From the sequence record OR757435: a stretch of 64,000 nt of DNA, one strand, 5' to 3'. The notes under the pieces are model-generated. The model was not told the origin of the DNA. It saw nothing but the letters and a program-made list of their open reading frames with translations, and searched no databases. A program made the translations under genes and the position numbers. How positions within the stretch are numbered: the stretch's first letter is position 1; the number at the start of each line of letters is the position of its first letter. Shown one piece after another: positions 5,203 to 60,607 of the stretch. Source of the stretch: Escherichia phage vB-EcoP-XT32.

Positions 5203-6102
5203 TTATGCCGCCTGACGTGCCGCCATAATCTCAGCCGCTTTACGCAATACTTCTTCCTCTTCTTCTTTCGCAGCTTGTTCGGTACGGATTGCAACTGTTG
5301 AAGAGATACGACCGCGCAGATTATCCAATTTTTCCTGCATTTTTGCGATGGTTGATTCCATTTCATCGGCATATGAATCAAGTGATTCCAGCTCCTTGCT
5401 TGATGCGTTCATCAGATAGTCGACAGAGATCGCTCCCGTTGAAGCCGTGACTTTCTTGATGAGTGAATCAAAGGACTTTTTAACTTTCCCCACTTCTTCA
5501 CTCAAGGCAATAGTATTATCACTGGTAGCGCCGTTGCGCTCATCAGCCAGCAATTTGGCTTCAATACGGATTGCATTCAAGCGTTCAACTAAGGCGTAAA
5601 TATCTTGGTTAAAATCTTCCTTATTTTTCGCCGGGATTTGAAGGTGGGCCGCCACGTTGTCATTGCAACCTTTGTAAAAGTTAGGATTATCGACTTCAAT
5701 TTCACGACCGAGGGCAAAATTTTCGAAAGCATTTGACCAGCGAGCGCGGTTTTGTTCCATTTTGGCCTTAATTTGCGCTTCTTTCGCATCTTCTTTCGCT
5801 TTCGCTTCACCTTCCAGATTAATCCACTTCTTACGCCCATTTGCCGCATCGGTGTTAAACTTGATCGGAGTCAGGAAAGTAATTGCAGTGGCAATCACAT
5901 CCATATCGCGGAAACGTTCGGTTAACAGAAAATCGACCGCCGCCTGCAATACGTCCAGCTTTTTACCATTGCTACGGAAGTGCTGCAAGTGCCCTAACAG
6001 AAAATTAGAAACATCTTGTTTGATCGCCGCGTTATTGCTGCGAATGTTGTTAGCCAGTGCGTTAAAACCAGATTCTTTAACCAGATTAAAAATTTTAGCC
6101 AT
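5203..6102 (-). CDS. hypothetical protein (299 aa), helical and charged
   Basis: Long ORF; start moved from GTG 6111 to ATG 6102 with AGGTGA RBS; no recognisable catalytic motif. Confidence 0.55.
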   Translation of the reverse strand: MAKIFNLVKESGFNALANNIRSNNAAIKQDVSNFLLGHLQHFRSNGKKLDVLQAAVDFLLTERFRDMDVIATAITFLTPIKFNTDAANGRKKWINLEGEAKAKEDAKEAQIKAKMEQNRARWSNAFENFALGREIEVDNPNFYKGCNDNVAAHLQIPAKNKEDFNQDIYALVERLNAIRIEAKLLADERNGATSDNTIALSEEVGKVKKSFDSLIKKVTASTGAISVDYLMNASSKELESLDSYADEMESTIAKMQEKLDNLRGRISSTVAIRTEQAAKEEEEEVLRKAAEIMAARQAA

Positions 6103-21289: not shown

Positions 21290-24200
21290 ATGATCAGTTA
21301 CAACAATTCAGCACCTACAGCGGTGAATAATGTAGGCCAATTTGGTGCTACAGAAGGATCAATTGGTGCTTATAAATCAGCGGCTGAGTATGCAGCTGAT
21401 GCTAAATATTGGGCGCTGTTATCCCAGACTAAATATTCTTCAGTAGATGAGATTCTTGCTGAGGTAGAACGTCTATACGCTCAAGGGTTCCTGCTAGAGT
21501 CTGACATTAAGCAACTTAAAGAAGACTTTGAAGCACAGAATCAGACTCTTCTAGGTCTTATTCAGTCTACGGGACAGGCTATTGACAATACAAATGCAGC
21601 TACAGATCTTTCAAGAGAAGCAACGCAGCAAGTCCTAGAACAGCTTGATATTATTTCTAATATGACGGTACAGACGACGCTACTACCCCCAGGTAGTTTG
21701 GCAACGGGTTCCTATGACAATACAACTGGTGTATTCTCTTTTGGTATTCCAGAAGGGAAGCCGGGTCGTGACGGAACAGATGGTACAATTTCAGACATTG
21801 GGGAAACTCCTGTTGGTATTCCTGTGTCGGATGATTATGGTTTTTTCGTAGATAAGGACTCTGGTGGGCTGTATAGAACCTCAATGGTTGACATTGCTAA
21901 TCTAATCCCCTCTGTTCGGTCAGTATCTCTTAATGGAGGTGTTGCTCAAACAGGAGAAGTTTCTTTACAGGTGGTTTCCAGTTTTAACTCACGGACAGGT
22001 GTTGTATCACCGCAGGCCGGAGACTATACTGTTGAGCAGATTACCGGTGCAGCTAAGAGTGGCTCTAACTCAGATATTACCTCCCTCTCAGGTCTAACCA
22101 CACCTCTCTCTCTGCTCCAAGGCGGTACGGGTTCTTCCACGGCAGAGGGGTCTAGATCTAATTTAGGATTAGGTGATGTTTCTGTAGAAAATATTGTTCC
22201 TATTTCGAAAGGTGGTACAGGAGCAATTAATACTACTATTGCTAGATCTAATTTAGGATTAGGTGATGTTTCTGTAGAAAATATTGTTCCTATTTCGAAA
22301 GGTGGTACAGGAGCAATTAATACTACTATTGCTAGATCTAATTTAGGATTAGGTGATGTTTCTGTAGAAAATATTGTTCCTATTTCGAAAGGTGGTACAG
22401 GAGCAATTAATACTACTATTGCTAGATCTAATTTAGGATTAGGTGATGTTTCTGTAGAAAATATTGTTCCTATTTCGAAAGGTGGTACAGGAGCAATTAA
22501 TACTACTATTGCTAGATCTAATTTAGGATTAGGTGATGTTTCTGTAGAAAATATTGTTCCTATTTCGAAAGGTGGTACAGGAGCAATTAATACTACTATT
22601 GCTAGATCTAATTTAGGATTAGGTGATGTTTCTGTAGAAAATATTGTTCCTATTTCGAAAGGTGGTACAGGAGCCTCTTCTCCGGACACGGCAAGGCTCG
22701 CACTGGTTGCGGCTAAGAGTGGGGCTAACTCAGATATTACTTCGATGACAAATAAGGTAACTTTTTCTCAACCTATACGTATACCAAACGCCGTTGAGAG
22801 TGACGAAGCAGTGGCATTAGGTCAGGTATCTAATGTGGTCTCTCAAGAACTAGGCCTGCCTACAGGGTTTAATCTTATTGGAGATCTCCCCTCTATTGAA
22901 CAACTTCAGACCTTAGAGGGAGCTTCTGTAGGTGACAAAGTCTTTGTAAGATCTTATGTCGAAGGGGCTAATATGGGAGGGGGTGTGTTTGTAGCAATAG
23001 ACAATTCAGAAACAGCTGATGGGGTGGTGGTTTTCAGTGGAGTTTCTGTAAAATGGAAGAGGTTGCTATTCTCTGGAGAAGCTTCTGTGTTTGATGCAGG
23101 CTACACTGGCAGCGGGGATATTGCTGTTTATATCAACAAAGTGAACTCCTCTGGTTACGATTGTATAGTTCCAACTTCTGGATCCGTATTATCTGAGATA
23201 GCTATTGACGTTTCTAAAGGAGCCTTGATAGGCTATAATAATTGTAAGCTTCAGGAAGGGGCTGGAGCAACAGGTCAATATTTCTTGAAGATTATAAATT
23301 CAAACACAGATTATGGGCTTAGAGATTCGATTTCTTCAACAGCTAAGATATCAGGAGTGTCCTTTGTTGGTCTAGGTGCCAGAAAGGTTGTAATTGGAGG
23401 GACTGATAGTGGGGAGGTGTCGGAAGTTCGGATAGAAAATTGTGGTTTTATCTCAACAGCTGGTCTTGAATTCCTTGATAATTCATATAGGATCCTTTTT
23501 GACAAATGTGCAATAAGTAGAAGCTTTACGGACACGGTTGTTTTTAAATCAAGAGCGAACTCTGGAGAAGTTATAAAGTTCAATCACTGCTGGTGCGTGG
23601 ATAACGGAGGACCTTTTACTTTTGAGAATGGACAATTCATCTTTGATACGTGTTCACTTCCTGCTGGGAAAAAGTCTGGATATTTTGACCCAACCATTAT
23701 AATGACAGACAACGCCACAGTTGTTTTTTCTAATGGGAACATTGAGTATCAACCGGATCAGTCTTTTGTTTCTTTTTCTGTTAATGGTAGTTCGAGATTG
23801 AGCATAAAAGATTCGACAATTTTGGTCCCTGTAGGTTTTAGTTCTGTCCCTATAGTAAGTAATGGGGATGGTTTTGTTTCTCTGACAAACTGCTCTCTAC
23901 CTCTGTATGGCAACAATACTCTAGCCACTGGTTTCCCTACTCGCCAACTCATCGGCGGTGATAGTAAGAGAGTTGTGTCTAACGGATGTTACCCTAGAGC
24001 TGGTTTTGTCTTAAGTAGGTGGGATCTTGGATCTATTGTAAGCCCTTACATTAATAGTCTTAGTAATGGTTCCGGGCAATTCTTAAATACATCTAACTGG
24101 ACATTTAGTCAAACAGGATCAGGGGTAGTGTCAGTTTCTCAACCCAATGATGTTCCGAGTTCGTCTCCTATGTTTAACACATCATTCTCTTTTGGTGTCC

Positions 24201-24505
24201 CAGATACGACTAGCTCGGCAAACTTCACCCAATCAGTGAGTGAGTGTCATCCCGGAAGATACTTTCAGTTTGGTTTTTGGGCTAAGAATACAACCACTAC
24301 ACTAGCATCTATTAGGTTTCTAGATTCAGCAGGTAATGCAGTTTCTGAGTCTATTGGATATTACATACCTAGTAACAACTCGTTCAGTTTCTATGCTGTT
24401 ATTGATTCAGTTCCTCCAGGGTCCAGTAAGGCTGAAATTAATTTCAACATAGGTGGCGCAGTTGGGGGGTGTGTTCTTCACAACATCATCTATGGATTGA
24501 TATGA
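21290..24505 (+). CDS. tailspike/tail fibre protein with tandem 30-aa repeats and C-terminal beta-helix-like domain
   Basis: 1071 aa; N-terminal helical region; AAKSG(S/A)NSDITS fibre-type motifs; 5.8 identical repeats RSNLGLGDVSVENIVPISKGGTGAINTTIA; C-terminal half rich in NG/GS turns with Cys-containing rungs typical of right-handed beta-helix enzymes. Confidence 0.65.
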   Translation: MISYNNSAPTAVNNVGQFGATEGSIGAYKSAAEYAADAKYWALLSQTKYSSVDEILAEVERLYAQGFLLESDIKQLKEDFEAQNQTLLGLIQSTGQAIDNTNAATDLSREATQQVLEQLDIISNMTVQTTLLPPGSLATGSYDNTTGVFSFGIPEGKPGRDGTDGTISDIGETPVGIPVSDDYGFFVDKDSGGLYRTSMVDIANLIPSVRSVSLNGGVAQTGEVSLQVVSSFNSRTGVVSPQAGDYTVEQITGAAKSGSNSDITSLSGLTTPLSLLQGGTGSSTAEGSRSNLGLGDVSVENIVPISKGGTGAINTTIARSNLGLGDVSVENIVPISKGGTGAINTTIARSNLGLGDVSVENIVPISKGGTGAINTTIARSNLGLGDVSVENIVPISKGGTGAINTTIARSNLGLGDVSVENIVPISKGGTGAINTTIARSNLGLGDVSVENIVPISKGGTGASSPDTARLALVAAKSGANSDITSMTNKVTFSQPIRIPNAVESDEAVALGQVSNVVSQELGLPTGFNLIGDLPSIEQLQTLEGASVGDKVFVRSYVEGANMGGGVFVAIDNSETADGVVVFSGVSVKWKRLLFSGEASVFDAGYTGSGDIAVYINKVNSSGYDCIVPTSGSVLSEIAIDVSKGALIGYNNCKLQEGAGATGQYFLKIINSNTDYGLRDSISSTAKISGVSFVGLGARKVVIGGTDSGEVSEVRIENCGFISTAGLEFLDNSYRILFDKCAISRSFTDTVVFKSRANSGEVIKFNHCWCVDNGGPFTFENGQFIFDTCSLPAGKKSGYFDPTIIMTDNATVVFSNGNIEYQPDQSFVSFSVNGSSRLSIKDSTILVPVGFSSVPIVSNGDGFVSLTNCSLPLYGNNTLATGFPTRQLIGGDSKRVVSNGCYPRAGFVLSRWDLGSIVSPYINSLSNGSGQFLNTSNWTFSQTGSGVVSVSQPNDVPSSSPMFNTSFSFGVPDTTSSANFTQSVSECHPGRYFQFGFWAKNTTTTLASIRFLDSAGNAVSESIGYYIPSNNSFSFYAVIDSVPPGSSKAEINFNIGGAVGGCVLHNIIYGLI
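22152..22674 (+). repeat. perfect tandem repeat, 90-bp unit x about 5.8 copies, in-frame inside the tailspike gene
   Basis: Units start at 22154, 22244, 22334, 22424, 22514, 22604 and are identical at nucleotide level. Confidence 0.9.
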
Positions 24506-41852: not shown

Positions 41853-42671
41853 TTACCAAGTTTTTTCGAGCCACGACCAATCAAATAGGTCTTCCGGAGT
41901 CTGACCAACAAAGAGCAGCCGAGCATTCTCAAGCATCTTCTCTTCATCTTCAGTATCGAACTTCTTATAATATTCCATTCGTACTATATGATACATGGTC
42001 CACTTGTCTGTAACACCAGCCAACAACTTAGCTGCTGCTTTCTTCCCTATTCCTTGACGTCGAAGCTGGAGCTTACCTCCCCACATAACTTCTTTACGTT
42101 CTCCACATCCGGGGATATTATCTGTACCGTCTCCAATCAACATCTGATAGAAGAAGTTTTGCCACGAAACTAAATCAGATACATAGTGAGGAGGAACTTC
42201 TTTCTGTCTTTCTCCACAAGCCCAACGGTAGTGCCATCCGGGAGTTATCAACAAATCCTTGTCTCTAGTACAGATGATAGTGTTCTTATCTCTACGCTGT
42301 CTTTCAGCTAGTGCATCATCAGCCTCTCTCCCAAATACATCTATGTATTCATATTTACCTTTAATGTAATCACCAACGTTCTGCCAGTGAAAAGGTCTTT
42401 CTCCGGGAGGTCTGTTTGCCTTGTAGTCTTGCTGCTTAGCAACATCGAAACGGAAGTTACCACCTTCGCTGAAGTAGAACACAACCTTACTGCAACCTGA
42501 TCGAGCAATTATAGTATCTATCTTGTACTGAAGTCGTTCAATCATGAAATTGTAATCAACTGGAACACGTCCTGTGTCAAGGAAGGGATGCTCCTGAGTA
42601 AGAGCACCCACTTCATATCGAAGAACGTCAGCATCCACTATAGCTACTTCAGGGAGCTTAACTTCTTCCAT
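41853..42671 (-). CDS. 5'-3' exonuclease (FEN/flap endonuclease family)
   Basis: VDADVL, YKANR, GREADD and GDGTDNIPG match the conserved FEN family acidic clusters. Confidence 0.8.
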   Translation of the reverse strand: MEEVKLPEVAIVDADVLRYEVGALTQEHPFLDTGRVPVDYNFMIERLQYKIDTIIARSGCSKVVFYFSEGGNFRFDVAKQQDYKANRPPGERPFHWQNVGDYIKGKYEYIDVFGREADDALAERQRRDKNTIICTRDKDLLITPGWHYRWACGERQKEVPPHYVSDLVSWQNFFYQMLIGDGTDNIPGCGERKEVMWGGKLQLRRQGIGKKAAAKLLAGVTDKWTMYHIVRMEYYKKFDTEDEEKMLENARLLFVGQTPEDLFDWSWLEKTW

Positions 42672-43262
42672 AAACTTTATCTCTATTTTCAGCTATAATC
42701 CAATCCAAGTAGTACCGAGCTTCCGAAATAGTTCGATTGTTGGATAATGTACAAGTTTCTAACTGCTCCCCTTCAATATAATTCCTAGAATCTCCAGAAA
42801 AATCACAACCATTCCTGTGAACTTGAACTACTACTACATTGAAAGACTTTTCTAGCTCTCTCACCTCTGCTTCAAACCCACCATCAGTAAACAGGATAAC
42901 ATCATTGTGATTCCTTCCTTCTGACTTGATACTATTTACTGCTTGGGTTCCCATGTAGTTCTTACCAAACATAGGTTTTAAGTAATCTTCACTTGTGGAA
43001 ATCATTAAATCTCTGACAGACCTACCTCCCCATTCAGGCCTAGGTTTTTCTTTCCAGTTTCGATCTTTATAAAACTCCAGAAAATCCTCCAAGTTCAAAC
43101 CTAATGCTGCGGAGGCGACTTTGTACATAGGCTCTTTAAATGATTTAATATAACGAGAATAAGACGCAATGTGGGATTTTAGTAACCACTCCTCAGCTAT
43201 CGTATCCTTACCACAACCCGGAGGCCCATTAAGAATTACTACTAAAGGTTTAGGCTCATTAC

Positions 43263-43272
<10 letters not shown>
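42658..43272 (-). CDS. P-loop nucleotide kinase, dNMP-kinase-like
   Basis: GPPGCGKDT Walker A near the N-terminus in a 204-aa protein; resembles phage deoxynucleoside monophosphate kinases. Confidence 0.5.
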
Positions 43273-48917: not shown

Positions 48918-50762
48918 TTAGTGAGTTTGCATCCAATTCAATCCGATTTTACAATCAGAAGCTAGTTCACAGTGCATGTTTAGATATTCACCTGCCTTCT
49001 TAACACAAGTCTCAGCTATCTTCTTCATTTTATCAACGTCGTTACGGTTGACAGACCACTGTGCTTCATCATGATAATCGATCACTTTGTTTCCTCTAAT
49101 ATTCTGCTGCTCTACCCATTTGTTTGTAAACAGAATAGAGTACTTCATGACAATGGCACCTGCACTCTGAAGTAGAGTATTCAGTGCTTTATGCACCATA
49201 ACCTTACCAGTAGCATCTCGTCTCATAGTTAACTTACGACCATCCACACCTTCCAAAGTGCCTGATTCCGCTCGGGCCTGAACTCTCTCCAGTACGATAG
49301 GAATACAAGGACATTCCGCTAAGAATCGCTCTCTAAGAATTTCACCTTCTTGAGCACCCCCTCCAACTATTTCCCCAATTTTAGCTGCTCCTGCTCCATA
49401 CAGGAATCCATAGATGAAGGTTTTTGCATTGTCACGAGTTGGAAGCCCAGCGAGTTTCTGATTGTGGGAATGAATATCACCAGACAGCAGTACATCTCTG
49501 TATGTATAGGCAGCTTCTAAGCCTTTCTCAGCTCTTAGATATTTAACTTTGTCATTTTCTAGTTTAGCCTCCTCCATCATATCAAGGCACTCTTTTACTA
49601 GATAATGTACCAGCATACGCAACTCTAACCCAGAACCATCATACCCTAAGAATACTTCTTTACCAGCGGGTATGTAATATTTGTAAGCACCTACAGGCTT
49701 ATCTTTCTTCCCCGGCTTACCTTTCTCGTAAATTACGTTAGTACCTTTTCGTATATAACAACCATCAGGAACAACGTTAGTAATAACGAAAGGACGAGAG
49801 TGATCATCATCTGAGTTATAGTCAGACTCAAACAAACTGCGACACTCATGACCAAACAAACCACGGGAGGGAATATTAACCACGATACGATGTTTGAATC
49901 GAAAAGTCGGCGTAGCGCAGCTGTTAGCTTCTGCCGAAAGTTTACCATCTTCGCGTTCCTTTGCTATTAGTCCACTGATAAGACCTAGCCTGTGAGCCGC
50001 TACAACGCGTCTCTTAAGCAAACTTCCGACACTTCCTAACTCACCCCCTAACCCTTCTTCAAGAGTCTCCTCGAGGTTTGTAGGAGCTGTAGGCCACTTG
50101 TTTGAGGTAGCTAGTGCTATCTTAATCTCGTCAAAAGTGATAGGTCTACGTCGGTTAGGATTTAAACCTAAACCAAATACATAAGCCTTCATATAGTTCT
50201 TAGTCTTAAACCTAAAATGCTTTTCTAAGAACTTCCTAATATCAGCGTCAACCATCTCGGCTGTCTGCTTCTGTTTAGCATTACCTCGCATCCAAGCTGA
50301 ATACCATGCTTGGTATGTTCCATACTTTCGCATATCTTTCTTGATTTCAAAAGTATTCCAAGGTTTCTTTGATACGTTAAACTCTGGAGGAAGAAAACCC
50401 TCATCCATAAGGGCTTCTTTAACTCGTGCATCTTTCGATGGGTCAAAGTCTACGTATTCAACACAGGTGAATGCTCCACCAATGTCTTCTCTCTTAAGTC
50501 CAACTCTATCACAATAGGCTTGAGGCCATTTCTGTAAAGCTCCAGACTTCTTAAATGGTTTCATGTAAGTAGAGCCATCTAATCGCATCTTAGGTAAGAG
50601 AGGAATCAGTTCTTTGTCAATATTAACAATAATCTCTTTAAGGAGGTGAACATACCACCGAGCATTTCTTCGGTTGAAACTCACTCCGTGCTTCGCTTGC
50701 TTAGAGATTATATCAGCGACAGTCATCTCTGTCAAAAATGGGAGAGCGTCCGGGTTGCTCAC
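48918..50762 (-). CDS. DNA polymerase, family A (T7-like), polymerase domain only
   Basis: Motif A DGSGLELRMLVHY, motif B RDNAKTFIYGFLYGAG, motif C HDE; lacks 3'-5' exonuclease motifs, which are encoded at 60053..60607. Confidence 0.85.
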   Translation of the reverse strand: MSNPDALPFLTEMTVADIISKQAKHGVSFNRRNARWYVHLLKEIIVNIDKELIPLLPKMRLDGSTYMKPFKKSGALQKWPQAYCDRVGLKREDIGGAFTCVEYVDFDPSKDARVKEALMDEGFLPPEFNVSKKPWNTFEIKKDMRKYGTYQAWYSAWMRGNAKQKQTAEMVDADIRKFLEKHFRFKTKNYMKAYVFGLGLNPNRRRPITFDEIKIALATSNKWPTAPTNLEETLEEGLGGELGSVGSLLKRRVVAAHRLGLISGLIAKEREDGKLSAEANSCATPTFRFKHRIVVNIPSRGLFGHECRSLFESDYNSDDDHSRPFVITNVVPDGCYIRKGTNVIYEKGKPGKKDKPVGAYKYYIPAGKEVFLGYDGSGLELRMLVHYLVKECLDMMEEAKLENDKVKYLRAEKGLEAAYTYRDVLLSGDIHSHNQKLAGLPTRDNAKTFIYGFLYGAGAAKIGEIVGGGAQEGEILRERFLAECPCIPIVLERVQARAESGTLEGVDGRKLTMRRDATGKVMVHKALNTLLQSAGAIVMKYSILFTNKWVEQQNIRGNKVIDYHDEAQWSVNRNDVDKMKKIAETCVKKAGEYLNMHCELASDCKIGLNWMQTH

Positions 50763-53972: not shown

Positions 53973-54187
53973 TTAACAACCTTAAATTTGAATGTTGTTG
54001 GGTGATAATAATGCAACCTGTTAATGGTGTGCTTTGTTTCAAGATATATCCTACAAGAGTGACACATAACATGAGACAGACCAGTTACAGGATTAGGTTT
54101 GAAGTTGATGATAGTCTTCTCTTTCTTACAGAAGCTACACACTTTATGTGTCATTAACTCTCCAAAGTTTTCTTCAGAGCTGCCCAC
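53969..54187 (-). CDS. hypothetical zinc-finger small protein
   Basis: CSFC ... CHSC motif. Confidence 0.4.
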   Translation of the reverse strand: MGSSEENFGELMTHKVCSFCKKEKTIINFKPNPVTGLSHVMCHSCRIYLETKHTINRLHYYHPTTFKFKVVK

Positions 54188-54801
54188 GAGATTGGGTAGA
54201 GTTTAGCCATCTCTTCATCCAGAGATTGAGCAAACACTCGAACTTCATACTGAGCATGGGAGGATAGTCGCTGACGACACAACTCAAACCAGCCATACAA
54301 AGAACCAGTCCAGTACCAAGTAGTTACCATACCTTGAGGTAAAACAAATCTAGCCTGTTCAGGAGCTACGAACTTAATTAATTCATCATAACTAGCAAGA
54401 GATGCCTCATATGCAGAGTTAAACAAAGCTAAAGCCTTTACCTCTTCATCTCCTTCAAGGAGTGTTCCAGAACCCGAATGTAGATCATCGGGGCGAGAGA
54501 AGATTTCTTTAGGTATAAAAATATCCACTGCTCCATCTTTATATCTACGACTCATCTCATTCCAAGAAAAACCAACTTGATGCTTCTGTAGCTGACGTGC
54601 AATTGCTATAGGGGCTTCGCATCTGAAGCTAGCTTGTGGGTGGCGAAAAGGGCTTACGTGTCGCTCTCGAGCTAGGAAGTTAATAAGCCGAGTATCACTT
54701 TCTTTCAACTCCTCTCTTTCTACCCCCATAGTCACACGAGCAGCATTGACCACAGTAAGGTCGGAACCGAAGTTATCAATTAGTGAAGCTTTGATTGTCA
54801 T
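54154..54801 (-). CDS. thyX: flavin-dependent thymidylate synthase ThyX homolog (divergent signature)
   Basis: HVSPFRH ... APIAIARQ ... KHQVGFSWNEMSRRY ... FIP and VLPQG...W...SHAQ align with ThyX; canonical RHR of the RHRx7S motif reads KHQ here. Confidence 0.7.
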   Translation of the reverse strand: MTIKASLIDNFGSDLTVVNAARVTMGVEREELKESDTRLINFLARERHVSPFRHPQASFRCEAPIAIARQLQKHQVGFSWNEMSRRYKDGAVDIFIPKEIFSRPDDLHSGSGTLLEGDEEVKALALFNSAYEASLASYDELIKFVAPEQARFVLPQGMVTTWYWTGSLYGWFELCRQRLSSHAQYEVRVFAQSLDEEMAKLYPISWAALKKTLES

Positions 54802-55267
54802 TTATATAAGTCTCCTTGACTTTATTATATGCTTTAGAGGCTTCTTCTATAGTTGAGAAGAGTCCTATGTGCTTAGATTTGAATACCGCCCGGTAAGCAA
54901 TAGAGCCACTTTTCCTTCTATGAAGAGTTACTCCAATCACTCCGGTTGATAAGTTGTTACTTTGGGCTATTTTGTTGAGTCCATTCCCTGACCTAGTAGT
55001 CCCTCTAAGGTTCTCTCTTTTGTTATTTAGTCTGTTGCGGTCTACATGGTCCACTTCTTCAGGAAGCAATCCAGTGTCCCACCAGTAAGCAAGTCGATGA
55101 GCATAATACCTAACACCTTTATAAACGATTCTCAAATACCCGTTGGTATTTATAGAACCAGCTATAGACCCTTTGCGCCCTTTTCCATAAGTTTTAACCC
55201 ATCGGAAATCTCCAGTCAAAGGGTCATAATCAAGAGCTTCTTTTATTGATGGATCAATATCATTCAT
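54776..55267 (-). CDS. HNH homing endonuclease with AP2-type domain
   Basis: EVDHVDRNRLNNKRENL (HNH) plus TGVIGVTLHRRKSGSIAYRAVFKSKHIGLFSTIEEA (AP2-like). Confidence 0.7.
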   Translation of the reverse strand: MNDIDPSIKEALDYDPLTGDFRWVKTYGKGRKGSIAGSINTNGYLRIVYKGVRYYAHRLAYWWDTGLLPEEVDHVDRNRLNNKRENLRGTTRSGNGLNKIAQSNNLSTGVIGVTLHRRKSGSIAYRAVFKSKHIGLFSTIEEASKAYNKVKETYINDNQSFTN

Positions 55268-56952: not shown

Positions 56953-57447
56953 NNNNNNNNNNNNNNNNNNNNNNNNNNNNNNNNNNNNNNNNNNNNNNNN
57001 NNNNNNNNNNNNNNNNNNNNNNNNNNNNNNNNNNNNNNNNNNNNNNNNNNNNNNNNNNNNNNNNNNNNNNNNNNNNNNNNNNNNNNNNNNNNNNNNNNNN
57101 NNNNNNNNNNNNNNNNNNNNNNNNNNNNNNNNNNNNNNNNNNNNNNNNNNNNNNNNNNNNNNNNNNNNNNNNNNNNNNNNNNNNNNNNNNNNNNNNNNNN
57201 NNNNNNNNNNNNNNNNNNNNNNNNNNNNNNNNNNNNNNNNNNNNNNNNNNNNNNNNNNNNNNNNNNNNNNNNNNNNNNNNNNNNNNNNNNNNNNNNNNNN
57301 NNNNNNNNNNNNNNNNNNNNNNNNNNNNNNNNNNNNNNNNNNNNNNNNNNNNNNNNNNNNNNNNNNNNNNNNNNNNNNNNNNNNNNNNNNNNNNNNNNNN
57401 NNNNNNNNNNNNNNNNNNNNNNNNNNNNNNNNNNNNNNNNNNNNNNN
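56953..57447. other. assembly gap (495 N)
   Basis: Continuous run of n characters. Confidence 1.
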
Positions 57448-58165: not shown

Positions 58166-58699
58166 TTACACACCTTTAGATGCAACTACACCTTCAGAGT
58201 TATTATAACGCCCCTTCACTGCATAGGAATGTTCCCCTGCATGAGAGTGCTCAAACATCACCATCTGACCAACACGCATACCAGCACGAACTCGTAAACT
58301 GTGGTGCTTGGTTACGTTATGGAATTCAAATGTCAGCTTACTGCTATTAAATCCTGCATCTGCCCAACCGGCGTGAAGGTGGTTCAAACCACAACGAGCC
58401 ATAGACGAACGCAGAACAAACAGACTTGAGATGTTATCTGGAAGATTAAACTCCTCCATGGAGTGAGCCAAGAAGAACTGACCCGGAGTGATAACCAAAC
58501 CCTCTTCAGGAATTTTTACTTCCTTCCACTGAAGATTTTCTTTCGCATCAATATCAACGATGCCATCAGCCTGTTCTTCAACAAGGATAGTATCACCAAT
58601 ACGGATATCCACACTAGCAGCGTTAACATACTTATGCTCCGCATCCAGATAGCCATTATCAATTACATCGTGTAGTTCAACACTTCCTAGTAAACTCAT
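58166..58699 (-). CDS. dcd: dCTP deaminase
   Basis: AASVDIRIGD, HAGWADAGFNSSKLTFEF and C-terminal YNNSEGVVASKG match the Dcd signature (VD.RLG, GW.D.G..G...LE, Y..QQGAVASR). Confidence 0.75.
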   Translation of the reverse strand: MSLLGSVELHDVIDNGYLDAEHKYVNAASVDIRIGDTILVEEQADGIVDIDAKENLQWKEVKIPEEGLVITPGQFFLAHSMEEFNLPDNISSLFVLRSSMARCGLNHLHAGWADAGFNSSKLTFEFHNVTKHHSLRVRAGMRVGQMVMFEHSHAGEHSYAVKGRYNNSEGVVASKGV

Positions 58700-58708
58700 T
58701 TTTATTCC

Positions 58709-59785
58709 TTAGTTATTTGTTTCCATGTCAAAAGAAAATCCACGACCCGCTTCATCGGCAAACCGAACTGTACGGGTTTGAGGCTCTAATACTTCAGGGT
58801 TGTTAGCAACAAACCGATCAGCGAGACTTTGGTTGACAGTTTCAGCGAGTTCCCCATGAGAGGGAATATTAAGATCGGCGAGATTATCAACCACATCTTG
58901 GGCCACGTCTTCATCAGTCCATACAGCCCTAACAGGTGCGTTGAAACTCTGACCAGAGAACTGGTGACGGCTAACAGTCAAACCATTTGATTGACCATTA
59001 GAACGTCTAGACAACCACTGCTCAAATGAATCGCCAGTAACACCAAGAGCTTCTTCAAAAGATGTTCTACGAGTAGAGCTTAGATTTCGTGCTTCGTTTG
59101 CTCGACGTCTTGCAGGGGCTACAAACACCCCTTCAACTGCATTGTGCCGATTAGGTTCATCTTCTCGACCAAGGAGATCTCCTCCTGTATTAGTTGTTAA
59201 GTTTGTCAACCCTTCAGACCAATATGCACGAATCTGGCTAGAGCCGTGAATGATTGACATTAACTGAATCTCTTCATAAGGGATTCCAAAGAATATACTC
59301 ATGTCTCGGTTAACACAATATTGAGCACTTGTTGTATCCTCAATAAGAGAAACCTGACCTAATCCACTAACCAGATGACTAACTGGCTGAGGTGTAGGAA
59401 GGTATCGAGTTTGGGCCATATATTGATATGCAACAGATGGAGCTGAGAATCTTAACACTTGTGAATTAGGCCACTTTTTGTGAACGTATCTGATTTCACG
59501 ACTAGAAACAACCACCGGGCAAGGAGCGGTCATAGCCAAATATCCATGAGGAGTCATGAATAGGTTTTCAAGGGTCATCGCACCACGACACATCATAGGA
59601 AAATTATCCAATACCTCTTCGATAGAAGTGGGATAATTAAACATGAATTGGATTCGAGTTCCCTGCCACTGAAATTCAATGATATCAGTGAATGTTAATT
59701 GGGAAGTTCCTGTATATGGTTCATCTGTAGTTTCAGCAAGAAGAGATGAATACTCAATATCTTGTGACTCTAGCCACTCTTTCAC
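58709..59785 (-). CDS. hypothetical protein (358 aa), partner of the upstream nucleotidyltransferase
   Basis: GTG start in ATGA-type overlap with the NTase stop; no ATG in frame upstream; no recognised motif. Confidence 0.45.
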   Translation of the reverse strand: MKEWLESQDIEYSSLLAETTDEPYTGTSQLTFTDIIEFQWQGTRIQFMFNYPTSIEEVLDNFPMMCRGAMTLENLFMTPHGYLAMTAPCPVVVSSREIRYVHKKWPNSQVLRFSAPSVAYQYMAQTRYLPTPQPVSHLVSGLGQVSLIEDTTSAQYCVNRDMSIFFGIPYEEIQLMSIIHGSSQIRAYWSEGLTNLTTNTGGDLLGREDEPNRHNAVEGVFVAPARRRANEARNLSSTRRTSFEEALGVTGDSFEQWLSRRSNGQSNGLTVSRHQFSGQSFNAPVRAVWTDEDVAQDVVDNLADLNIPSHGELAETVNQSLADRFVANNPEVLEPQTRTVRFADEAGRGFSFDMETNN

Positions 59786-60051
59786 ATTGCTTTCAATCTC
59801 ACGCCCAAGAGCTTGCCACTGAAAGTGTTTTGAGTTCTTGGTGTCTGTCCTCTGACAATAAAGATATCGATGTCATGAGGTGCTATGTTATTAAGAACAG
59901 CGTCACGAACAGCCCCACCAGTAATGATGGGACAGATACCATCTGGAATCAAGTTGTTGTTAATCAGCTGTTCAATGAAGTGACGACCGACAGTGATATC
60001 AGGTTGTTGAGCAACCTTATCTTCAATTCGGTTAATCGGGATAACAATCAT
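59782..60051 (-). CDS. pol-beta-superfamily nucleotidyltransferase (CCA-adding/poly(A) polymerase-type head motif)
   Basis: GGAVRDAVLNNIAPHDIDIFI matches the GGxVRD...DxD signature of class II tRNA nucleotidyltransferases; ORF stops 24 aa after the motif. Confidence 0.5.
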   Translation of the reverse strand: MIVIPINRIEDKVAQQPDITVGRHFIEQLINNNLIPDGICPIITGGAVRDAVLNNIAPHDIDIFIVRGQTPRTQNTFSGKLLGVRLKAM

Positions 60052-60052
60052 T

Positions 60053-60607
60053 TTACATTTTCCAATATAATGAAGGTGGGTCGTAAGGGTCAAATCCTGT
60101 GAGTTCACACAAGTATTTATAAACCTTAACGGTTAAGTTAACGTCCTGTTCACAGTAAGTAAACATATCTTCAGTGAAAGCATCCCATGCTTCCTCTTGC
60201 TCACCGTAGTCTCCTTTAAGTTCCTCTAAGAACTCACCCCATTGCTTCAAACCATGACCTCTTGGGCCATGTCTAGGGTCACCTTTCGGATACTCAGGAC
60301 TGTCACCAATACGGTCAGGTTTAAGATATCGACTAAGACACAAGGTGTCGAAGACGTTAAAACGATAGTCGATCAGATTGGGATACATCTTCTTCAGAGC
60401 ACAAAGGTCGAAGTCAATAATATTATGACCTACGAGCACATCAGCTTCTGTAAGTTTACGAACCCCATCTTCAATTTGGTGAGGCCGATAGCCCCACCTT
60501 TCACCAGTTTCAACATCGAAGATGTAAATACACCATACTTTAGTTATGTCATCGTATAGTGCATTACTCTCGATATCAAAAGCAAACACTTTCTTTTTCT
60601 TTACCAC
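60053..60607 (-). CDS. 3'-5' proofreading exonuclease domain of T7-like DNA polymerase, separately encoded
   Basis: Exo I FDIESNAL, Exo II HNIIDFD, Exo III YCEQDV; alignable along its length with the T7 gene 5 N-terminal domain. Confidence 0.75.

Follow-up and report, generated by a model that had tools for sequence, protein, structure and literature searches.

Two adjacent open reading frames in the genome of Escherichia phage vB-EcoP-XT32, a Kuravirus, raise the question whether a nucleotidyltransferase can be divided between two polypeptides. The first, ORF1, carries the GGAVRD and DIDI motifs of the class II tRNA nucleotidyltransferase head and stops shortly afterwards, and the second, ORF2, begins in an overlap with this stop. 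An earlier note on this DNA, made from the letters alone, had accurately described a motif-bearing ORF at 59782..60051, a GTG-started partner of 358 aa and their stop-start overlap. It had considered one enzyme split by a frameshift, programmed or otherwise, as well as a two-subunit enzyme, and had suggested that the product might add CCA to tRNA. Here we follow up this arrangement in the window, that is the whole analysed stretch of 64,000 nt from record OR757435. We conclude with high confidence that the two ORFs are the halves of one conserved Kuravirus nucleotidyltransferase gene that has been broken by a 13-nt deletion. By comparison with related phages we show the unity of this gene, the deletion itself and the uniqueness and recency of the latter.

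Results

Two reading frames in the deposited sequence

Both ORFs are exact matches to deposited XT32 proteins: ORF1 is 100% identical to WPK42006.1 and ORF2 100% identical to WPK42005.1, and each is annotated as 'hypothetical protein' in XT32. The region is 92–97% identical to that of many Kuravirus (phiEco32-like, Gordonclarkvirinae) coliphages. In ORF1, GGAVRD occupies residues 45–50 (59919..59902) and DIDI residues 60–63 (59874..59863). The early stop after the motif had been noted before, albeit with a count of 24 residues; it lies 26 residues past DIDI. A GTG at 60108 is available as an alternative upstream start for ORF1, and the ATG of MIVIP is the start in every relative. The GTG of ORF2 overlaps the TGA of ORF1 within ATGTGA. 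No start codon precedes this GTG in the frame of ORF2, which is open upstream to about 59875 and encodes the homologous residues QWQALGREIESN before the GTG. In Pfam, ORF1 gave a sub-threshold match to the PolyA_pol head (E 0.0017; score 19.1 bits, cut-off 23), whereas ORF2 gave no match, in agreement with the earlier reading that ORF2 has no recognised motif. The features of the locus are listed in Table 1.

Table 1. Features of the interrupted nucleotidyltransferase gene of XT32 and its direct neighbours (positions in the window).
Feature	Position	Strand	Basis
DNA polymerase 3'-5' exonuclease subunit, upstream neighbour	60053..60607	minus	DNA_pol_A_exo1 E 1.2e-8; PHROG 38876, 403; synteny
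ORF1	59782..60051	minus	ATG at 60051, TGA at 59784..59782; 89 codons
Gene codons 1–77, original frame	59821..60051	minus	PHROG 12715 positions 1–77; 100% nt identity to XT73; motif A
Deletion junction	59820..59823 (gap ~59821/59822)	minus	13 nt CATCCGTCATGAA of XT73 absent between ...CACTTT and CAGTGG...
Out-of-frame tail of ORF1, SGKLLGVRLKAM plus TGA	59782..59820	minus	12 codons without homology, frameshift-made
Homologous codons QWQALGREIESN, -1 frame	59786..59821	minus	N-terminal half of helix 80–100
ORF2	58709..59785	minus	GTG at 59785..59783, stop 58709..58711; 358 codons
First ~187 codons of ORF2 (~190 residues)	59225..59785	minus	rest of folded nucleotidyltransferase domain; PHROG 12715
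C-terminal ~170 codons plus stop	58709..59224	minus	Kuravirus-specific tail, predicted disordered; Arg/Ser/Gly/Asn-rich
dCTP deaminase, downstream neighbour	58166..58699	minus	Pfam DCD E 3.5e-34; 100% protein identity to 172-1; synteny

One conserved gene

ORF1 and ORF2 match one and the same entry, PHROG 12715 ('nucleotidyltransferase', 457 positions), ORF1 at positions 1–77 (E 1e-43) and ORF2 at positions 94–457 (E 7.7e-193), collinearly and across two frames. Since both match a single phage protein family in this collinear manner, the ORF pattern is not a product of chance. In each of the 69 related phage records the length of the homologous span is divisible by three (1245–1374 nt, 415–458 codons), whereas the window has 1343 nt; an unbroken frame is thus present in 69 of 69 relatives and missing in XT32, where 13 nt are deleted. 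The RefSeq records inspected (172-1, NJ01 and SU10) show a single CDS of 451–456 aa at the same place, and both halves lie in one frame in seven IMG/VR loci (L005–L011), which include distant relatives at 30–46% identity.

The same gene occupies the same position in 172-1 (YP_009208240.1), NJ01 (YP_006906138.1) and XT73 (WPK42040.1), and a note in the NJ01 record names 'phi32-73' as its phiEco32 counterpart. ORF2 shares 95% protein identity with the nucleotidyltransferase of 172-1. Whereas the gene is uninterrupted in other Kuravirus members, it is interrupted in XT32 and annotated as two hypothetical proteins. The intact family is already known and annotated, though functionally uncharacterised, and the 'split enzyme' of XT32 is a frameshifted copy of it. 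The proposal of a single enzyme split by a frameshift was right in this respect, and alignments with the relatives and with XT73 trace the split to the 13-nt deletion. The alternative proposal of a two-subunit enzyme finds no support, given the one in-frame gene in all 69 related records and in the distant loci L005–L011.

A 13-nt deletion and its consequences

The sibling phage vB-EcoP-XT73, from chicken-farm sewage, shares its host strain and apparently the study of origin with XT32. Its gene begins with ~540 nt that are base-identical to the window, the 13-nt gap excepted. Aligned with 172-1, NJ01 and SU10, the gap lies directly after ...QNTF, and the missing 13 nt encode I-R-H-E plus 1 nt. 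The exact breakpoint is ambiguous because a CA dinucleotide is found at both ends of the missing segment (2-nt microhomology). The gap falls in a five-residue stretch that is variable among close relatives (TTVDH, IRHEQ, VRHDQ, IPTDR and others), and across the wider family this region varies in length as well as in sequence. In the structure model it corresponds to the low-confidence loop 71–79 between the DxD strand and helix 80–100.

The GTG 'start' of ORF2 encodes Val94 in intact genes, and the TGA of ORF1 is the first out-of-frame stop; both are unchanged in intact genes. For this reason the two ORFs overlap from stop to start and ORF2 possesses neither an ATG nor a motif. In relatives, the bases of the out-of-frame tail of ORF1 read ...WQALGREIESNV... 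instead. In the -1 frame the protein can be read on as QWQALGREIESN-V-KEWLES..., its true continuation, and as the QWQALGREIESN codons lie upstream of the GTG they are encoded by neither ORF.

In XT32, then, 13 bases are missing where the gene encodes a hypervariable surface loop next to the DxD strand. A ribosome that starts at the normal ATG is carried into the neighbour of the -1 frame, passes through 12 nonsense codons and reaches a stop, with the remainder of the gene staying open in another frame. To this remainder an ORF finder assigns its first start-like codon, the GTG of Val94, and the stop-start overlap arises by accident from the position of the first out-of-frame TGA. The break parts the motif-A aspartates in ORF1 from the third conserved acidic residue in ORF2 and removes half a helix. 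We infer that XT32 makes little or no active enzyme.

Recency of the deletion

Re-reading a single base at the junction yields a clean ORF of 447 codons. This reconstruction keeps the shared residue in each of the 201 alignment columns without variation among 25 relatives, contains no private residues outside the loop and has a dN/dS of 0.11 against 172-1. Among intact relatives dN/dS is 0.11–0.16 in the folded part and 0.3–0.6 in the tail, which indicates that the gene is normally under selection. Around the gap the window shows not one substitution against XT73, so that the lesion must either have arisen very recently or be an artefact. The undecayed state of ORF2 fits both, and it would fit continued function as well.

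Of ~85 genes shared with 172-1 the nucleotidyltransferase gene is the only one that is split in the window, and the assembly is therefore not generally error-prone. The other genes flagged in the comparison with 172-1 reflect tail-fibre replacements, small ORFs, a masked N run and the end of the window. The junction sequence is absent from IMG/VR, metagenome contigs and genome contigs. Four candidates for further split copies (P0076, P0054, P0058 and P0057) were rejected as contig-end truncations or chimeras with other junctions. A partial homologue of 283 aa on an ENA metagenome contig (P0044) has a tail that shifts frame after ...SARQFS, which points to an independent frameshift or an assembly error in the indel-prone disordered tail.

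The 5' portion of the gene belongs to a patch of ~570 nt (60098..59530) of XT73 type, in which 51 consecutive informative sites match XT73 and which is flanked on both sides by backbone matching phage 172-1 at 99–100%. This pattern represents either recombination mosaicism centred on the nucleotidyltransferase gene or a chimeric assembly. We also considered the deletion as a by-product of imprecise recombination at a mosaic breakpoint and rejected this idea, since the gap is placed centrally within the patch.

Fold and conservation of the intact protein

A first model from a Kuravirus-only alignment, in which identity to the query was 77% or higher, had a mean pLDDT of 33 and was unusable. After the alignment had been widened with distant relatives from an exhaustive HMM search and a second, word-based search, the first 280 residues were resolved. 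In the resulting AlphaFold model residues 1–280 form one confident domain (pLDDT 80–95 up to ~280), and residues 283–432 have pLDDT values below 50 and are predicted to be disordered. The intact protein is a Pol-beta-fold nucleotidyltransferase that comprises a head and part of a neck only.

The catalytic D60-x-D62 is encoded at 59874..59866, and residues G45, G46, R49, D50, D60 and D62 are invariant across the family. Motif A reads GG.[VP]RD in 28 of the 30 members and D.D in all 30. Within its first ~187 codons ORF2 contains a further acidic residue that is invariant in the family (D127 when numbered on the intact protein and D34 in ORF2, at 59686..59684) and a conserved R-D/E-x-x-Y-x-x-K-K motif. 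When 1.84 billion representative proteins were searched exhaustively with a profile, only 31 clusters (50% identity) were recovered; they have the first ~210–290 residues in common, and the C-terminal ~150 are confined to Kuravirus. The Kuravirus tail, which is absent from distant family members of 274–320 aa, ends in the conserved motif TRTVRFADEAGRG-SFDMETNN, and the tails of the window and XT73 differ by in-frame indels of 15 nt and 9 nt. NCBIfam and PADLOC yielded no matches. In precomputed annotation, PF26128.2 is listed for many intact relatives (P0002, P0004, P0009 and others); a local Pfam-A scan of these relatives gave only the sub-threshold PolyA_pol match, even at E values up to 1.

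Relation to CCA-adding and other nucleotidyltransferases

Class II CCA-adding enzymes and bacterial poly(A) polymerase (PF01743; PDB 1miv, 3h37, 1ou5 and 3aql) are the nearest solved folds to the catalytic head, and their motif A (GGxVRD followed by DxD) is present in the XT32 family. Sequence searches of the PDB found nothing with a narrow profile and, with a wide profile, aligned only the 27 residues of motif A, to the CCA enzyme 6ibp (E 0.005). Motif A alone was likewise aligned by hhalign against E. coli Cca, at a probability of 12%. Intact relatives score 18.0–21.5 bits against the PF01743 head, a range that includes the 19.1 bits of ORF1 and lies below the gathering cut-off of 23.

Class II CCA-adding enzymes are further characterised by motif B, DxxRRD, for ribose recognition, by motif D, EDxxR, which serves as an amino-acid template for the selection of CTP and ATP, and by a head-neck-body-tail architecture (PMC2910056). 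Motif B was found in none of the 30 family members (RRD occurs once, at a non-homologous tail position) and EDxxR in two of them, both times at non-conserved tail positions. In place of four domains there are ~280 folded residues followed by a disordered tail, with no body or tail domain. Because motifs B and D and the architecture are missing, we regard the protein as a class-II-like head with a phage-specific disordered tail and not as a demonstrated CCA enzyme. Unlike CCA enzymes, the XT32 gene sits in a DNA-replication module, and no tRNA genes were found in the window. The earlier note had likened ORF2 in size to the body of a CCA enzyme; instead, its first ~190 residues complete the catalytic domain begun in ORF1 and the remaining ~170 are predicted to be disordered. 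The idea of CCA addition or tRNA repair finds no support either, given that the likeness is limited to motif A and that both a body or tail domain and, in the window, tRNA genes are lacking.

Small head-only podovirus nucleotidyltransferases in BFVD (Pseudomonas phage LKD16, Aeromonas phage phiAS7, Vibrio phage VEN and Providencia phage PS3; PHROG 1614) have a similar fold. About 200 residues align with target-normalised TM-scores of 0.4–0.59 and E values of 1e-7 to 1e-5, and ORF1 matches PHROG 1614 with E 1.3e-5. With 167–236 aa these proteins lack the Kuravirus C-terminal tail; they are 14–18% identical and uncharacterised too. The MenT family of minimal toxin-antitoxin nucleotidyltransferases shares the core of the Pol-beta superfamily. 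A match of this kind had been named earlier as an argument against a CCA enzyme, and a MenT-like protein was not found as the best structural match together with an antitoxin or defence profile.

Genomic neighbourhood

As in Kuravirus relatives, the gene is located between the exonuclease subunit and the dCTP deaminase; a primase/helicase is a further neighbour, and a family-A DNA polymerase and ThyX follow farther along. Primase/helicase, exonuclease, nucleotidyltransferase and dCTP deaminase form a cassette with strict synteny among related phages of 76–90 kb. By far its most divergent and fastest-evolving member is the nucleotidyltransferase, with 30–46% identity against 55–96% for its neighbours in L005–L011; in these loci, where the gene lies at 6001–~7300, the primase/helicase is 77–95% and the dCTP deaminase 75–96% identical. 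The pairing of dCTP deaminase and nucleotidyltransferase has been noted before, and DNA modification has been speculated to underlie the restriction resistance of these phages (PMC11990801).

Several other features of the window came to light. The family-A DNA polymerase is encoded in two pieces ~9 kb apart on the minus strand, a 614-aa polymerase (48918..50762) and the 184-aa exonuclease (60053..60607), and is annotated likewise in relatives. A masked run of 495 N (56953..57447) covers the counterparts of 172-1 ORF87 and part of ORF88 and gives rise to spurious X-filled ORFs in all frames. A 1071-aa ORF (21290..24505, plus strand) stands in place of two tail-fibre genes of 172-1 and is similar to them only in its N-terminal ~223 residues (56%), a pattern as expected for a swap of receptor-binding proteins. 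In the slot of the 172-1 dNMP kinase (ORF50), which has no homologue in the window, there is an unrelated GTG-started ORF of 204 aa without Pfam match (42658..43272, minus strand). Directly upstream of ThyX (54154..54801), an ORF for an HNH endonuclease (54776..55267, minus strand; HNH_3, E 1.2e-10) is probably a homing-endonuclease insertion, since 172-1 has no counterpart at that place.

Discussion

Before the deletion is taken at face value, it has to be asked whether the two ORFs could still give rise to an active enzyme. ORF1, with the half that bears motif A, and ORF2, translated by reinitiation at the GTG, might assemble non-covalently into an active nucleotidyltransferase, and the ATGTGA overlap could indeed permit termination-reinitiation. 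The break is also located within a surface loop of low model confidence and ORF2 shows no decay. Nevertheless, we consider such a functional split very improbable: none of the 69 records is split, nor are the distant relatives, the GTG and TGA are made up of ordinary coding bases, which intact genes share, and no Shine-Dalgarno-like sequence was read at a suitable distance 5' of the GTG. Moreover, residues 78–93 and with them half of helix 80–100 would be missing, ORF1 would carry 12 junk residues, and the cut separates D60/D62 from the third invariant acidic residue (D127 intact, D34 in ORF2). Without a single substitution against XT73 across ~540 nt, the split arrangement is also too recent to have been under selection. 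Alternatively, a programmed -1 ribosomal frameshift might restore the full-length protein from the two frames. Were tRNA-Phe to slip by -1 on C-UUU-C exactly at the junction, the product would read ...QNTF-QWQALG..., with the loop four residues shorter. Such slippage could produce a near-normal protein of 447 aa, at most at a low, spontaneous level. However, direct reading of the overlap 59782..59875 revealed no X XXY YYZ heptamer but only the single-tRNA site U-UUC, and the 116 nt around and downstream of it fold no better than shuffled sequences (MFE -25.6 kcal/mol, mean of shuffles -26.0, z = 0.12). The same downstream sequence is present in intact genes, and none of the 69 records or of the 7 distant loci has the two-frame arrangement. 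The programmed frameshift raised in the earlier note is therefore scarcely credible, with no heptamer, an unremarkable RNA fold and no frameshift in any relative.

The reading of one gene broken by a deletion includes a sub-case in which there is still one gene but it is not biologically broken. The real XT32 would then carry an intact XT73-like gene and the gap would exist only in the deposited consensus, for instance due to mis-assembly of a mixed lysate of XT32 and XT73 type. This is a serious possibility, although not the one that we favour. It would agree with the lack of any other lesion in the gene and the retention of all 201 invariant residues, with the position of the gap inside the XT73-type patch of 570 nt (60098..59530) within a 172-1-type backbone and with a deletion junction that is found nowhere else. 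A mixed template is conceivable because XT73 comes from the same host strain and apparently from the same study. On the other hand, a clean 13-nt deletion with 2-nt microhomology is atypical of homopolymer or short-read errors, and no other shared gene is frameshifted in 64 kb, although neither of these points is proof. Furthermore, it is the interior of the XT73-type patch that holds the gap, away from its borders. A search for literature on phage XT32 found none. Roughly weighed, the balance tips towards a real deletion over an assembly error.

These findings, of little consequence as they stand, correct the annotation of XT32 in that two 'hypothetical proteins' correspond to one frameshifted nucleotidyltransferase gene. 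They also remove the ideas of a split enzyme and of a CCA-adding function for this phage. If the deletion is real, the gene would be dispensable for growth on the isolation host of XT32, and a comparison of XT32 with XT73 would offer a ready genetic test of the part that the enzyme plays in restriction resistance as speculated for these phages (PMC11990801). We put forward only tentatively, as a possibility that we regard as rather unlikely in its entirety, that XT32 is a viable natural null mutant and that this phage-only, head-only class-II-like enzyme would act beyond the CCA ends of tRNA, for example on a replication-linked or anti-defence substrate. The residual value of the locus lies in the uncharacterised intact family, which has been kept beside the dCTP deaminase in Kuravirus and in the more distant related phages examined.
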